Below are positions 1 to 7,975 of a stretch of 52,166 bases of DNA, one piece after another. The stretch lies in assembly GCA_028873295.1 (NCBI GenBank), contig JAGWKO010000003.1, positions 1-52,166 of the forward strand, given 5' to 3'. The stretch's first letter is position 1, and every line of letters begins with the position of its first letter. A program made the position numbers and the translations under genes. Below the pieces are notes generated by a model. That model was not told the origin of the DNA. It did not search any database and saw only the letters and a list, made by a program, of their open reading frames with translations. Source of the stretch: Verrucomicrobiota bacterium (lineage in GTDB: Bacteria; Chlamydiota; Chlamydiia; Chlamydiales; SM23-39).

Positions 1-108
1 TTTTTTGGGGGACTGTATCAAACTTCGTATACAGCCCCCCAAAAAAGAAGCGAAATTCGGCTCAAAAGAACCCGAAAATCGACGAAGCCTCATTACTGGA
101 ATAGGTTC
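1..108. repeat. Palindromic repeat element family A, copy 1 (cut by window start)
   Basis: Near-identical to 34960-35067: shared core GGGGACTGTATCAAACTTCGTATACAGCCCCCCAAAAAAGAAGCGAAATTCGGC and terminus CTCATTACTGG(A/G)ATAGGTTC. Overlaps the stop codon of ORF 93-1379. Confidence 0.9.
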
Positions 109-1379
109 TTAAGAGCCACATTGCGCAGCTCCACATCCTCGATCTTCTTTACAGCCGTCATGATCTCTCCTACATGTTGAGCTCTATTTTTTATTTGATT
201 CGCAACAATCGCGATTTCCCCCATGTCGCAATGATAAAGGACCATTGCGCAAATGCACTCTATAAGAGCCTGGCGCTGCTCTTCCAGATCATTCATTGCG
301 TTTGAGATAATCAATAGATCGCTGCTGCTGTAGCTGTTGGAGGGCATCTCGCAGAGAATAGCTCCCAGAGTTGTGTCTCGCAAAGTTTTATCTTGTGAGT
401 TTTCCAATTCGTTTACAATGGTTAAGATCTCCTCTGCACTGCGCTGGGAGGAGACCATTACAAAAGCGATTTCCTCTAAAGCAAGGTCATGAGTAGTTCC
501 TTTGATTTCATTTGCAATACCCAAGAGTCCTTCCACGCTATAATTTAAAGAGGCCATTTTTCGGGCAGCATCCTGTAGGATGTAATCATGTTCTTGCACA
601 TTGGCGGCTGCGGTTGCAATATCCAAAATTTTATCTGTGCTGCAGCAAAAAGAGGCCATCAGATAACTAACATCCCGCAATTGGGTAGAGCGCAGTCCAG
701 TATGCTCTATCGCGTTGATAATGCTTAAGGTCTCATCTGTACCGCGGTCGATGGCAACCATTATGCGGCTGACTCCTTGCAAAACCCGATCGCGCGACCA
801 GCTATCGTTTATTTCACGTGTAATTTTCAAGATCTCTTCTGCGGTGTGGTCCCTAGTGGCCATATGCAAGGCAATGGATTGAAAAGCGTGCAAGTGTTCC
901 ATTGGGTTTTGTATCTCTCTTGCGCGCTCATGCGCAAGGTTAAATGCTGCAAGGCGTGCGAGTATGCCCACATTCTCATCAGAAGCGTTTTCTCGACATG
1001 CCATGGAGCAACGAGCGACTCTTTGTAAGAGTGGAGGGACAATGGAGGAGATCTTTGCAAGTGAGGCTGCCTTCAGGTTGGGAGAGAGGAGAACGGATGA
1101 TTCTATTTGGTTTAGTTCTTTTTCCTGGATGGCTGTGTCTGATACGGTTGTCTTTATTGAACCATGCAAGAGGGCCCAAGAGCGCGTGAAATATATTGCA
1201 GCGCGGTTCATCTCCTTGCAAACAAGAGAGCATTGGGCCATCTCCCTGGTGTTGAGGTATCCAAAAAGATAGACGAGAATATCTGGGGACAAAGTGTTGA
1301 TTTTTGTTGCTTTTTTGTTTTTGGCAACTAAGTGATGTGTATTTATTTGTGTTAGATTGTTTGTGATTGATTGTGTCAT
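93..1379 (-). CDS. F-box domain protein with ~34-aa helical (TPR-like) repeats; candidate secreted effector
   Basis: N-terminal LSPDILVYLFGYLNTREMAQCSLVCKEMNRAA fits the F-box consensus (LP.EIL..IF.YL....L...SLVCK.W). C-terminal half has about 7 repeats at a 34-aa period (AEEILKITREI / TDETLSIINAI / TDKILDIATAA ...). Confidence 0.75.
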   Translation of the reverse strand: MTQSITNNLTQINTHHLVAKNKKATKINTLSPDILVYLFGYLNTREMAQCSLVCKEMNRAAIYFTRSWALLHGSIKTTVSDTAIQEKELNQIESSVLLSPNLKAASLAKISSIVPPLLQRVARCSMACRENASDENVGILARLAAFNLAHERAREIQNPMEHLHAFQSIALHMATRDHTAEEILKITREINDSWSRDRVLQGVSRIMVAIDRGTDETLSIINAIEHTGLRSTQLRDVSYLMASFCCSTDKILDIATAAANVQEHDYILQDAARKMASLNYSVEGLLGIANEIKGTTHDLALEEIAFVMVSSQRSAEEILTIVNELENSQDKTLRDTTLGAILCEMPSNSYSSSDLLIISNAMNDLEEQRQALIECICAMVLYHCDMGEIAIVANQIKNRAQHVGEIMTAVKKIEDVELRNVALKNLFQ

Positions 1380-3711: not shown

Positions 3712-4758
3712 TCAGTATCTAATTCCTGTCTCCAGGGTGAGTCCCTGGAAGGTTAGGTTGCCCTGGGTCTGAGAAACAGAAGCGCCGGCGGTTGTCTCAT
3801 TCAGCTCATCGATGTAGCGCAAGAGACCATTCTGTTTCCACCAGACCTGTGTCTCATAGGCAGCGCTGACAAAATAGTCAACGGAGCGGAAGGAGTGCAG
3901 AAAAGAAAATCCTAAAGAAAGATCGGCTTCCGGACGGAATGTCCAATATTTTTCGGTGAGATCGACAGAATCTGTGAGGAGGGATCTCTCCTCTAAAAAA
4001 AGATCTGTTTCTGCGCGTCCGAGGTGGAAATAAGAGGCAAGAAGCGCTGTGGAGAGATGCCCGAAAAGAGAGACCCCCTTGCCGAGAGCCCAAAGCGTTT
4101 TTAGCCCGAAAAAAGGCCCCACGTTATTGGAAAAGCAGTTCATGTCGATGGATGAGGAGAGGATACGAATCGAGGAGGTGACCTGATTGCCTTCTGAATA
4201 ATCGACATTATAGTTCTGATGGATCCAGGCAGAGCGAAGACCCCATTCAGGTGCAAGAGTGAAGCGCGTGCCGATTAGACAGTCGCGTTCCAGAGCAAGG
4301 TCAAGAAAGGAGTTTTGCATCTTCCAGTGGCTCTTTGCATGAAGAAAGCGCGCTGTCGTATTGTTGCCAAGAAAAGCAGCGGGATTAGTCCAGACAGCGA
4401 TGAGTCCAGGACCAGGGAGAGCAGTGGGATCAAAACTGGCAGAGGTGCTGCGACCAAGATGCGATGCATAGTAGGTATAGGTGGCTTCCAAATTCCAGTT
4501 GTCATAGGGAAGCAGTCCGCCTGCTCTTAAGCGAAAGGCGGGGAGAAATTGAAAGTTGGGCTCGTAAAAGGTGAGATTCTGATCGTTTTGAGATCCAGAA
4601 TTTTTGTAGGCGAACTCCAGCCCATCCTCCACCGCATCCCAGTAGAGAAAATCAACGGCGAATGAAAAAACCTCTTCTTTGGGAGGGGGAGATTCAAGCG
4701 ATGAGGGAGCCGCTGCAAAAAGAGAAGAAGAAAGAAGCAGGAGAACGAAATATACCAT
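3712..4758 (-). CDS. Lpg1974/MOMP-like outer-membrane beta-barrel porin (paralog 3)
   Basis: Signal peptide, Pro-rich linker, DFLYW..EDGLEFA, YETQVWW, GNLTFQGLTL and terminal aromatic Y. Confidence 0.75.
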   Translation of the reverse strand: MVYFVLLLLSSSLFAAAPSSLESPPPKEEVFSFAVDFLYWDAVEDGLEFAYKNSGSQNDQNLTFYEPNFQFLPAFRLRAGGLLPYDNWNLEATYTYYASHLGRSTSASFDPTALPGPGLIAVWTNPAAFLGNNTTARFLHAKSHWKMQNSFLDLALERDCLIGTRFTLAPEWGLRSAWIHQNYNVDYSEGNQVTSSIRILSSSIDMNCFSNNVGPFFGLKTLWALGKGVSLFGHLSTALLASYFHLGRAETDLFLEERSLLTDSVDLTEKYWTFRPEADLSLGFSFLHSFRSVDYFVSAAYETQVWWKQNGLLRYIDELNETTAGASVSQTQGNLTFQGLTLETGIRY

Positions 4759-4759
4759 G

Positions 4760-5785
4760 TTAATAACCTACTGTAGCAGAGAGAGAGAGACCTTGAAAAA
4801 GAAGGTTGCCTCGATTGTTGAACGCAGCAGAAAAGAGGGCGCTGTCGGCAGTGCGAATTGTCATATTTTGCTCCCAGTATTGCTGAACTTCATAGCCTGC
4901 TTCACAGGAAAAAAGGCCGCTTTTCCCCCAAAGAGTCTCCCAGACAAACGCTACCTTCATCTCCAAAAGAGGTCGCCATACCCAGAAACCCTCATGCAGA
5001 TGCGCTCTAACCTTGTCGAGGGCTCCGTCAATGAGACCAAGAGCAAGATCGATTCGTCTTGTTTTCATCTGTGAAAGAACAGCTGCTGCAGCAATGTCCC
5101 CATAGAGAGAAAGTCCGTGCGGGAACTCCCAACGCGTTCCCCAACCTGCTCTGGGACCGACGCCATGACAGTAGGTCTTTGTGTGTGCAGAAGATTGCAG
5201 CATGCTGCTTGTTTCAAAAGAGGCGCCATCAAAATAGGAGACATCGTAGGTTTGGTCGATGAGAAGAGCCTTTAGCCCTCCAAAAAGTGTAAAGAAGAGA
5301 GTGTCCGAGAAAGAACCACTGGAGGCAAGCTCCAGATCAAGCTCATTGAGGTGTAGTTTGAGTGCAGAAGAGCTCTTTGCATAGCGGGGGGCGGGGATAA
5401 TGGCAGCCCCCTCAGGGATCCAAAGAGGCAAAAGACCCTCTCCAGAAACAGTGACAGGAGAGGTAGCATGAGTTGTTGAGGAAAAAAAACCCCATGTCCA
5501 GCGCGCAATAGCATCCCATCCGATGTCCTGAAAATGATACCCGACAAGAGTTTTGCAGCCCGGATTCCAGGAAAAATCAGGAGAGACAAGGTTGGCTGAT
5601 ACCTGTAAAGGGGAGGAGGGATTATTTGATGCGGCAAATTCAAGCCCATCTTCTATGCACTGCCAATAGAGAAAGGTCGCCTCAATGCGCAGCCCGTCTG
5701 CCTCTTGTTGTTCAGGGAAAGAGGGTTTTGGGGGCTCCGGAAGCGCTGCGAAAAGAAGAAGTGGAAGAGCAAGAAGTTTTTTCAT
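4760..5785 (-). CDS. Lpg1974/MOMP-like outer-membrane beta-barrel porin (paralog 2)
   Basis: Start at MKKLLALPLLLFAA; FLYW..EDGLEFA, GYEVQQYW, GNLLFQGLSL, terminal Y. Confidence 0.75.
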   Translation of the reverse strand: MKKLLALPLLLFAALPEPPKPSFPEQQEADGLRIEATFLYWQCIEDGLEFAASNNPSSPLQVSANLVSPDFSWNPGCKTLVGYHFQDIGWDAIARWTWGFFSSTTHATSPVTVSGEGLLPLWIPEGAAIIPAPRYAKSSSALKLHLNELDLELASSGSFSDTLFFTLFGGLKALLIDQTYDVSYFDGASFETSSMLQSSAHTKTYCHGVGPRAGWGTRWEFPHGLSLYGDIAAAAVLSQMKTRRIDLALGLIDGALDKVRAHLHEGFWVWRPLLEMKVAFVWETLWGKSGLFSCEAGYEVQQYWEQNMTIRTADSALFSAAFNNRGNLLFQGLSLSATVGY

Positions 5786-5793
5786 GTTTGAAC

Positions 5794-6891
5794 CTAGTAT
5801 CGATAGGAAGCTGTTGCTGTCAGTCCATGCATTTGCAAATCGCCGCGAGAGGGGAAAGTGCCTCCGGGGAGGAGATGGGAATAGCCTCTTCTCAAGAGAT
5901 TTTGTCCCCACCAGTATTGAAATTCATAAAGAACCGCAAGGCCTACTTCACTTGTGGTGAAAAAGTCATATTTCCAATCAATGCCAAATTGTGCTTCGAG
6001 CACCGGCTCAAGGCCATGTGAGTTTGTGTGCTGCGTGAGGTGATAGGGTACCTGACTTGCAGTATCTACCTGAACGTTGAGATCCTCCTGGTCCCGCGTC
6101 GTTTTAAGAGCGGAGTAGAGCAGGGAAAAGGCAGTGTTGATCTCGAGTGCAAGCCCCCAGCCAAATTTCCAGCGAGAGTCAAATCCCAAACGAGGCCCTC
6201 CTCCCCAGGTTCTATTATCGAACGAAACAGTGCTTTGTAGAAGCGAGTAGACGACGTGCTCTCCTCCTGCGATAAGGGCATCGACGGTGGACCCGTTGGC
6301 ATATTCGACGCGGTAATACTGGTGAATCCAGGCGCCCTTCAGCCCCGTAAAAAAGTGCCAATCGCTCAATCTGCCGAAGGTGGATAAACGCCCCATCTCA
6401 AGATCGATGGAATCAAAATAGTGGCGCCAGCTCGAAGTGGAGGAAGAGAAGCGAATAACGCTTGGTTCATGAACTGTATAAAAGGGATAAAACCAGAGAG
6501 GAATAATTCCCATACCCTCAGGGGCGATCTGCTCCTCGAAGTGTTTTTTCAAACGTGTCGTCTCACCTCGATACCAGGTCCAACGGGCATCCAGATCCCA
6601 CTTGTCTGCAGCGAATTGATAACCGACCTCCAGTTTTGCGCCAGGCCGCCAGGCAAAGTCCGGAACGGAGATGTTTTCCTTTAAAGCGGCATGTAGAGTC
6701 TCTTCCTCTGTTGGCTGCGTCGACTTGGCAGAAAATTCTACACCCCACATCTTCGATTGCCAAATGAGAAAGGAGACGTCGACAAAAGGGCTCCCCTGTG
6801 GTGTAGGCTTAGGAGGGGTGGCAGGAGGAGTGGAAGGGAGAGAGCAAAAAAGCAGCGCAGGAAGGAGCGTAATAGGCCAAAGATAATGCAT
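5794..6891 (-). CDS. Lpg1974/MOMP-like outer-membrane beta-barrel porin (paralog 1)
   Basis: Signal peptide, Pro-rich linker, SFLIW, YEFQYWW, GDLQMHGLT, terminal YRY. Confidence 0.75.
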   Translation of the reverse strand: MHYLWPITLLPALLFCSLPSTPPATPPKPTPQGSPFVDVSFLIWQSKMWGVEFSAKSTQPTEEETLHAALKENISVPDFAWRPGAKLEVGYQFAADKWDLDARWTWYRGETTRLKKHFEEQIAPEGMGIIPLWFYPFYTVHEPSVIRFSSSTSSWRHYFDSIDLEMGRLSTFGRLSDWHFFTGLKGAWIHQYYRVEYANGSTVDALIAGGEHVVYSLLQSTVSFDNRTWGGGPRLGFDSRWKFGWGLALEINTAFSLLYSALKTTRDQEDLNVQVDTASQVPYHLTQHTNSHGLEPVLEAQFGIDWKYDFFTTSEVGLAVLYEFQYWWGQNLLRRGYSHLLPGGTFPSRGDLQMHGLTATASYRY

Positions 6892-6922
6892 AGCTCGGTT
6901 TGGGGTTCCAAAGAGGTTTTAT

Positions 6923-7137
6923 CCCCTGGACGCGAGAAAACTCGGCCCTTTAGGGCCGAGATGAATCGCGACTTTTGCTTTTAATTTCTTCCCATACTAA
7001 ACTATACTGCGTAGTTCGGCAAGACCTTCCTGGGACAAGTTCCCCTAACCAAAATTGCCAAAGTTTTAGCCCTGGGGTAGCATGGCTTGGGTATCCAATC
7101 CCTAGAAGCCTTCGGCTTTAGCCGAGGGAGCTGTCAC
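6923..7137 (+). mobile_element. Non-autonomous IS200/IS605-family mini-element (no tnpA/tnpB)
   Basis: Preceded by TTTAT (6918-6922). Left hairpin CTCGGCCCTTTAGGGCCGAG. Right end CCCTAGAAGCCTTCGGCTTTAGCCGAGGGAGCTGTCAC has the related hairpin and terminal TCAC typical of tnpB-carrying elements. No terminal IRs or target duplication. Confidence 0.75.
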
Positions 7138-7157
7138 GTCACGATGTTGTTAAGGAG
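7010..7157 (+). ncRNA. Putative orphan TnpB omegaRNA (reRNA) scaffold plus flank-derived guide
   Basis: TTGCTT-17-TAAACT promoter candidate (6975-7003), then about 128 nt ending at the TCAC right end. The guide would be the flank GTCACGATGTTGTTAAGGAG. Inferred from IS605 architecture. Confidence 0.45.
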
Positions 7158-7975
7158 CGACTCACAGCCCTGCGGAAAGCATCTGACTCATCTGCCCAGA
7201 TGCGGTCCAGAGTGCGCTGACAATCAGCGGAAGAGATATCCCCCCGATTTCTTACCCCTTGTGAAGGGAGTTGTCTTTGAATTAACAGACAAATAAAAGC
7301 CTGACGGAAGGCTAACGCATTTTTAGCTGAGGGGATCTCTTTAAAGGAATGCCTCTTTATGTAGAGGTCGAGAATGCCAGACATAAGAGGATAATGACGC
7401 TCGCCGTCAGAGCAGATAAAAAGTGCATAGTAACGATTGATAAGAGCCTCGTCACTCTCTTGCCGAGTGAAGAGGGGAGCGATCCATTCTTCTTCAAAAG
7501 AGAGAAGCTGTCTATCTTTTTCTTCCTCTGAGAGAGATTCTGTGTGGCAATGGAGATATGCGATTGCACATTTTGTCTCTCTGGAGAGTCTTTCCCAAAA
7601 AAGAGGTCGGATCGCATCGTGCAGTTCTGTCGGGTTGTACGCTACACTTACAGGATTTCCTCGAAGGTTCATCTGCTTTGGCGGATGACGCATGGCACAG
7701 TAGACAATGGGAATAGAGGCAAGTTGTAGCATGGGATCATTGCACAAGAAATAGTGACGCGCTTCACCAATTTCAAGAGGAAGTGGGTAGATTCTCTGCA
7801 TGAGATGTCTCTCATGTGGCACTTCTCTTGAAGCGCAACAGGGGAAAATCGAAAGGGCAATTCGTGCAATGCGGGAGAGGCCGGATGCAACTGCTCTATC
7901 ATCGGGAGTAGCTGGAAGAGGGGTATTTCGCTCGACGTGCGAAGAGGGGGCTGTGTGCTGTATCATATGGGTCAA
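7139..7975 (-). CDS. Hypothetical protein (possible effector)
   Basis: 278-aa ORF with a low-complexity P/S/T-rich N-terminus; no recognised domain. Confidence 0.55.
   Translation of the reverse strand: MTHMIQHTAPSSHVERNTPLPATPDDRAVASGLSRIARIALSIFPCCASREVPHERHLMQRIYPLPLEIGEARHYFLCNDPMLQLASIPIVYCAMRHPPKQMNLRGNPVSVAYNPTELHDAIRPLFWERLSRETKCAIAYLHCHTESLSEEEKDRQLLSFEEEWIAPLFTRQESDEALINRYYALFICSDGERHYPLMSGILDLYIKRHSFKEIPSAKNALAFRQAFICLLIQRQLPSQGVRNRGDISSADCQRTLDRIWADESDAFRRAVSRSLTTS

Follow-up and report, generated by a model that had tools for sequence, protein, structure and literature searches.

A gene-less IS200/IS605 mini-element with a probable TnpB guide-RNA scaffold in a Chlamydiota assembly

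The element and its surroundings

The window analysed here is the whole stretch of 52,166 nucleotides. It is contig C58 of a 1.41-Mb assembly (84 contigs, 97% complete). The Pfam matches in it include DUF818 and three tandem porins of the Legionella_OMP type, which suggests an environmental member of the Chlamydiota. Near its N-terminus, a further protein (93-1379, minus strand) weakly matches the F-box, which is found in chlamydial host-interacting proteins. The three porin genes (3712-6891, minus strand) adjoin the left end of a short IS200/IS605 mini-element, and an open reading frame converges on its right end (Table 1).

Table 1. Features at the locus, in window positions
Feature	Position	Strand	Remarks
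First of three tandem porin genes (Pfam Legionella_OMP)	5794..6891	-	start about 30 nt from the left end of the element
TTTAT target motif (TAM)	6918..6922	+	directly outside the left end; TTTAT or a near variant also precedes the aligned mini-elements and the tnpA/tnpB elements L088, L147 and L148
Protein-less IS200/IS605 mini-element (PATE), 215 nt	6923..7137	+	boundaries from relatives; right end possibly 7142
Left end: AAAA box (6937-6940), hairpin (6941-6960), outer stem	6930-6972	+	same end on tnpA/tnpB elements
Likely sigma70-type promoter (TTG..., 17 nt, TAnnnT)	6975..7003	+	conservation across copies
5' leader of the predicted RNA, with small hairpin (7032-7045)	7010..7067	+	covariation in copies
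Putative omegaRNA core, 70 nt	7068..7137	+	covariation; topology as in ISDra2
Core: stem 1	7068-7087	+	
Core: pseudoknot	7076-7080 with 7131-7135	+	
Core: GGG/CCC stem	7089-7102	+	
Core: AGAAG box	7104-7108	+	
Core: right-end hairpin	7109-7128	+	
Core: TCAC end motif	7134-7137	+	
Flank that would serve as guide	7138..7157	+	its first five bases duplicate those that close the element
Convergent host ORF	7139..7975	-	likely start ATG 7966; stop codon abuts the right end; lineage-specific

A preliminary description of this DNA had named the TTTAT, the left hairpin, a TTGCTT-17-TAAACT promoter candidate, a right end at 7137 and the absence of an ORF. All of them lie where it placed them. The left-end hairpin is a perfect 8 bp and is nested in the outer stem. 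No ORF of at least 100 aa is present inside the element. On the minus strand, i.e. in the direction of porin transcription, the left-end hairpin is also terminator-like.

The boundaries come from the relatives. A 701-nt query with at least 220 nt of flank per side was searched in 61 genomes. It gave matches in 17 of the 60 other genomes. Among the matches listed, all fall inside query positions 215-445, and most have their first base at 218-219 (window 6917-6918) or their last at 438 (window 7137). The flanks themselves had no match in the 60 related genomes and are not alignable there. TTTAT or a close variant precedes the copies across the family, and insertion is 3' of this T-rich motif, without target duplication. 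The ends with subterminal hairpins are common to the element and to tnpA-bearing elements. These edges agree with the earlier claim of a protein-less IS200/IS605 element.

The element and both flanks occur in independently assembled contigs (record X2, 6883-7235; record X3, 5700-7439), with zero differences. A contig from another study spans 6855-7115, again with zero differences. Since contigs from other runs cover the element without differences, it is not an assembly artefact. No excision joint was seen in the contigs from seven runs.

The right end has two candidate positions. A second GTCAC (7138-7142) starts the flank, so the true end could be 7142, and this 5-nt repeat is peculiar to the window copy among the copies. 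The end may lie at 7137 or at 7142, a choice that the sequence does not fix, and an end at 7142 would give a different guide. The convergent ORF has no Pfam family. It has one paralogue in the assembly (on C81) and no homologue in 102 other genomes of the family. The search for an empty site by way of this ORF therefore gave nothing. The empty site for either end leaves the ORF with the same C-terminus.

We surveyed the 61 right ends with enough flank (34 from mini-elements and 27 linked to tnpB). At 12 of them, a convergent frame of at least 100 codons terminates in the TGA that lies opposite TCAC (L016, L027, L044, L054, L065, L074, L083, L085, L088, L119, L125 and L138). The other two frames give 1 and 2 cases. 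The window copy matches this pattern exactly if its end is 7142. More precisely, the TAM and the end motif both read as opposite-strand stops in the same register. Insertion at a convergent stop therefore swaps TAA for TGA and leaves the protein unchanged. The preliminary description had pointed out that the guide is antisense to the 3' end of this ORF. The overlap is real, but it is a by-product, because such elements survive at gene ends.

The guide also matches the excision junction, as previously noted; this is true and simply follows from the design of the element. Besides the empty site, the assembly contains no second target of the window guide preceded by TTAT. The guides of the 34 mini-elements are all different. 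The sequence ACCATT opens the guide in four of them (L061, L073, L077 and L083), at unrelated loci, and no other five-base start is shared. We found no shared site behind these four guides, and their neighbouring genes are unrelated.

The predicted RNA: core, promoter and leader

The core is homologous to the 3' end of tnpB elements whose RuvC D-E-D is intact. We aligned 26 right ends (8 from mini-elements and 18 linked to tnpB). In the core structure, 97.7% of 572 cells are paired, and compensatory changes occur at 13 of the 22 pairs. Slid controls give 40-56%. None of 500 shuffles reaches these values, a count that is not a probability, as the rows are related (which inflates the test) and selection makes the columns of the signature invariant. 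For the pseudoknot, 98.5% of the cells are paired, with compensatory changes at 3 of 5 pairs. Within the long subtype described below it scarcely varies (0 of 5 compensatory). Most of the pseudoknot covariation thus lies between lineages.

The window copy retains all six stem-1 pairs and all five pseudoknot pairs, using its own letters. Compared with the commonest mini-element form, it has altered three pairs in stem 1 and three in the pseudoknot, and all 11 are still paired. The scaffold is in this respect intact, as first supposed.

No role of the pseudoknot in the DNA step of transposition is known. That it is nevertheless kept points to selection on the RNA.

On its own, the window RNA is not folded more stably than its shuffles (z +0.39). 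In a calculation that leaves out the pseudoknot, the pairing probability of stem 1 is 0.01-0.02 once the leader is attached. In the same type of model, the omega-type fold lies above the minimum by 0.6 kcal/mol for the core and by 3.5 kcal/mol with the leader. The tnpB-linked L010 behaves similarly (stem 1 at 0.05-0.07 with leader). The Rfam covariance models gave nothing near the gathering score for the element or its relatives.

A promoter is likely upstream of the leader. It consists of TTGCTT (6975-6980), a 17-nt spacer and TAAACT (6998-7003); a second TAnnnT lies at 7003-7008. The -10 letters T6998, A6999 and T7003 recur in every one of the 27 aligned elements, one of which has a 3-nt gap. 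This box stands 50-65 nt 5' of the core and belonged to no search pattern. Counting the first three candidates listed for each element, 20 of 28 have a -35 box that starts with TTG at 17-18 nt. The consensus promoter scanner did not include the window promoter in its list, and the support for it is the conservation across copies. The candidate of the preliminary description gains from this conservation.

In the leader hairpin, compensatory changes occur at 3 of 3 pairs (25 copies). A hairpin is also present at the R-E-H-x-C-S codons of tnpB, before the last CxxC, with 90 pairs versus 76.9 +/- 3.8 in synonymous shuffles of 17 related genes. Profile comparisons of the leader and of the long-subtype insert with tnpA and tnpB DNA found no homology (best E 0.8). 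The leader probably descends, in degenerate form, from the 3' coding region of tnpB. Elsewhere in tnpB, the codons near NELLSQR and SLSKYQ form the two most over-folded of 117 seven-codon windows (z -5.2 and -5.5, judged against synonymous shuffles) in the genes L087-L090, L147 and L148. They hint at a structured 5' portion of the tnpB message.

Spread, subtypes and helpers of the family

A 22-nt signature occurs at 19 loci in genome contigs. Fifteen are mini-elements without an ORF, in Chlamydiota or unnamed-taxon records, and four are tnpB ends from Chloroflexota and Cyanobacteriota. A mini-specific pattern finds 21 metagenome loci. In a sample of the phylum, 14 of 401 Chlamydiota genomes, from seven families, carry the signature, and all 27 matches are non-coding. 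The reversed-pattern control gave 0 matches in this sample. The covariance model of the family has matches in 17 of 150 genomes, tnpB ends included and with one genome (G071) left unscored; in its own genome it finds only the window copy. Plasmid and phage collections yielded only short end matches, partly beside IS200/IS605 tnpA. Matches are also present in seven viral contigs: five tnpB ends, one fragment and one mini-element. The last of these (L227, on a viral-classed contig) is a long-subtype mini-element, the same element as L066. The contig is a possible vehicle between hosts, or it may be misclassified.

With 26 other copies, the window copy shares 58-73% identity. Three subtypes can be distinguished. 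In the shortest, the promoter stands directly on the core (L040-L042 and L123; also L029 and L204). In the three copies with a recognised left end, about 8 nt separate its -10 box from stem 1, which implies a predicted natural scaffold of about 70 nt. A core with leader is found in the window copy, L056, L058 and L079. Most copies belong to the long subtype, which adds an insert of 50-75 nt to core and leader.

The family is mobile. The flanks differ at every copy, and near-identical copies with differing flanks are found in G131, G065 and G024. Three copies in G131 are one base apart, and G065 holds three similar copies. These copies, and the ends common to tnpA-bearing elements, bear out the proposed mobilisation in trans at the level of the family. 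The core of the mini-elements differs from the co-resident tnpB ends in the middle loop and the pseudoknot letters, and resembles the mini-elements of other families. They are therefore not fresh local deletions. Decayed copies are typical of the helper-less genomes G036 and G063. In G050 (L092, L116, L150-L154), more than 20 decayed tnpB fragments lie beside two long-subtype mini-elements whose folds are largely intact.

Dispersed copies, which the preliminary description had raised as a possible guide library, were not found in this assembly. The window element has one copy there, and the contig ends contain no piece of it.

The same ends are carried by elements with tnpA and tnpB (L087/L010, L088, L148 and L089) and by tnpB elements (L020 and L147). 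The TnpBs of these relatives have 372-373 aa and are 65-83% identical to that of L087. Cognate tnpB elements with an intact RuvC D-E-D thus exist in relatives (7 of 7). Among 16 genomes with mini-elements, a search with a single protein found a full-length matching TnpB in four, fragments in four and none in eight. TnpA is present in 7 of 15 such genomes tested. The recent expansions of mini-elements coincide with a tnpA+tnpB element (G131 and G065).

The earlier suggestion of a TnpB, or a nuclease-dead TnpB, encoded elsewhere in the genome fares differently. Six-frame HMM searches of the assembly found no TnpA and neither a matching nor a nuclease-dead TnpB, an absence that stays provisional in an assembly that is 97% complete and in 84 contigs. 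One tnpB-only element with intact catalytic motifs does occur (C42:4054-5294, plus strand, with TTCAT), as well as a truncated right-end copy with a different flank (C16:149-382). We rejected the C42 TnpB as a partner: it has other ends, its motif is TTCAT, and it is 19-26% identical to the matching clade.

The long subtype can take two mutually exclusive folds. In one of them (27 copies), the last arm pairs with the arm that comes first after AGAAG, and the two enclose a hairpin and a long interrupted helix. Here 95.8% of 1072 cells are paired, 18 of 42 pairs show compensatory change, and 0 of 500 shuffles reach this. In the inserted hairpin, 7 of 7 pairs are compensatory. The alternative is a distal hairpin shaped as the right-end DNA hairpin, with 94% paired and covariation not beyond shuffles. 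This suggests that one may be an RNA fold and the other a DNA fold. Rfam has no match for the long-subtype relatives. A ribozyme-like reading of the insert, judged by eye, was dropped, and Rfam did not support it.

Interpretation and comparison with known systems

Our preferred reading, which we hold with good confidence, is that the window element is a gene-less IS200/IS605 derivative. It keeps both ends, a likely promoter and a structurally conserved scaffold of a TnpB guide RNA, it would depend on a helper, and it is likely an orphan in this assembly. The basis is at the level of sequence: the ends, the family and its mobility, the covariation of stem 1 and pseudoknot, the -10 box, the RuvC motifs of relatives and a helper that was not found. 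As the assembly yields no matching helper, the window copy is probably an ordinary member of the family that has been left stranded, and not one guide in a library of them. A single internal deletion in a tnpB element probably founded the lineage, which would since then have evolved as an RNA, free of coding constraint.

Where a helper is present, its TnpA would excise the single strand between TTTAT and TCAC and insert it after another TTTAT. The element promoter would give an RNA of about 130 nt plus guide, transcribed from about 7010. A helper TnpB would load this RNA in trans and cut the emptied site at TTTAT plus flank, and repair from an occupied copy or allele would retain the element. 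For tnpB elements this chain of excision, cutting and retention by TnpA and TnpB has been published, and for PATEs it has been proposed (10.1101/2023.03.14.532601). Because the core of the mini-elements differs from the co-resident tnpB ends, loading of their RNA by a co-resident TnpB is an assumption. If the end is 7142, the guide of this model gains five extra bases and misses the empty site. Without a helper, a copy would be inert or would act only in cis. The eight of 16 genomes lacking a TnpB of the matching clade could also mean a role independent of a helper.

If the element is read as a MITE, nothing would matter beyond its DNA ends and the fact that it is transcribed: TnpA would move it, and the omegaRNA fold would be inherited baggage that has ceased to load TnpB. 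The helper-less assembly, the weak predicted folding of the window copy and the decay of several copies elsewhere fit this picture. We consider it improbable, given that all 11 pairs of the window copy stay paired after six of them changed, and that the leader and insert helices covary in non-coding copies. Less probable still is the proposal of the preliminary description, a domesticated guide cassette or distributed guide library with which a TnpB, or a nuclease-dead one, regulates or cuts chosen targets. Sites and guides vary between genomes, and no two of the 34 guides are the same. The assembly has a single copy, its only TAM-flanked target is the empty site, and a dead or matching TnpB was not found by six-frame HMM. 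The mobile ends are intact, a trait absent from TldR loci. The conserved promoter and scaffold, the persistence of mini-elements in eight of 16 genomes without a matching TnpB and the division of the assembly into 84 contigs speak for such a library; so does the start ACCATT in four of 34 guides, but those loci have unrelated neighbours.

An equally slim chance attaches to a decoy or regulator, an RNA that titrates the helper TnpB or TnpA, or an insert that acts in cis as porin terminator or antisense to the convergent gene. The extra covarying domain of the long subtype and the terminator-like left-end hairpin would suit it, and titration of TnpA has been suggested for a PATE RNA (PMC4615843). 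Nevertheless, the complementarity between leader and tnpB mRNA is no better than in shuffles (best -24 to -32 versus -26 to -36 kcal/mol), the insertion sites are not conserved, and the window copy is of the short subtype, with core and leader and without insert. 

A bolder extension of the preferred reading, which we think unlikely, is a guide-only lineage without a parent gene that hops between chlamydial families and exploits any related TnpB/TnpA pair, the long subtype using its two folds as a cargo module. As DNA, the distal hairpin would serve TnpA. As RNA, the duplicated arm would rebuild the terminal stem and display the covarying three-way domain. If so, this domain could bring in a further factor, or it could give the RNA an advantage over the guide that the helper itself encodes.

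Gene-less omegaRNA elements are already published, as PATEs and as stand-alone omegaRNAs. Protein-less, omegaRNA-encoding PATE-like elements are known in Geobacillus stearothermophilus (Meers et al., 10.1101/2023.03.14.532601). By its sequence, the window element has the features of such an omegaRNA-encoding PATE. The absence of a protein gene, both IS200/IS605 ends, the TAM/TEM motifs and an omegaRNA needing TnpB in trans are common to both. The G. stearothermophilus PATEs derive from elements of the same genome. In contrast, the Chlamydiota lineage spans at least seven families, its core is unlike the co-resident tnpB ends, it has three size subtypes, and its assembly is often helper-less.

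The stand-alone omegaRNAs of OMEGA systems, as summarised by Altae-Tran et al. (2023, PMC10691335), are mobilised loci without effector or transposase. They have a reported function in trans, and their biological role is described there as unknown. The present element resembles them as a mobilised omegaRNA locus of this kind, in which activity in trans is predicted. They come from genomes that also hold effector loci, whereas the window assembly is without a matching effector. A stand-alone omegaRNA with an effector in the same genome was accordingly set aside, as only the C42 TnpB and the C16 fragment were found in this assembly, which is 97% complete.

Like the ISDra2 omegaRNA (Nakagawa et al. 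2023, PMC10097598), the predicted RNA has a terminal stem closed by a UUUA loop and a 3' guide from the flank. Its pseudoknot joins the stem-1 loop with bases -7 to -3, compared with bases -5 to -3 in ISDra2. The ISDra2 scaffold has 116 nt and overlaps tnpB, whereas the core here has 68-70 nt with a minimal middle stem. This is also below the range of 79-466 nt given for processed RNAs (Nety et al., PMC10278001). In Halobacterium salinarum, a PATE RNA (VNG_R0052) and sotRNAs are expressed (PMC4615843). That PATE likewise has fused left and right ends without a transposase gene and is a precedent for transcription. It is archaeal and its expression was shown, whereas the Chlamydiota element is known from its sequence alone.

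The guide RNAs of TldR (Wiegand et al., 10.1101/2023.11.30.569447) have a TnpB-type scaffold, as here. Their loci are without transposon ends, lie beside a RuvC-dead gene and have conserved promoter targets, and none of these traits is seen here. A domesticated guide of the TldR type was rejected, as transposon ends are present, no nuclease-dead TnpB is nearby, and no conserved guide has a TAM-flanked host target.

We found no description of such elements in Chlamydiota in the literature searched; loci of this kind may appear in the tables of PMC10691335 or PMC10278001. What is new is a lineage distinct from the co-resident tnpB ends, a subtype with the promoter directly on a 70-nt core, and a long subtype whose terminal stem contains a covarying domain. 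It is the family that is of value, as a test set, and not the window copy. This set is clean, with three natural subtypes, matched TnpB and TnpA helpers in the same genomes and orphaned copies in varied decay. It makes the competition of guide-only elements for a borrowed nuclease directly testable. The family also suggests that a 372-aa TnpB, for which a TTTAT motif is predicted, may work with a very compact scaffold that accepts inserts at one position.

The assembly contains a second protein-less mini-element of about 400 nt (C48:13201-13596, minus strand), from an unrelated family and with the ends of the C42 tnpB element (TTCAT). The loci L167, L168 and L169 stand for this family; a full-length homologue (83%) is present in G003 and a partial one in G207. 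It has no Rfam match. It has a likely promoter and a structured RNA of about 300 nt. An insert of about 55 nt precedes its terminal hairpin, at the same position as the long-subtype insert, and resembles a vestige of the tnpB CxxC codons. For this element, in contrast to the one in the window, the assembly does offer a candidate helper TnpB.
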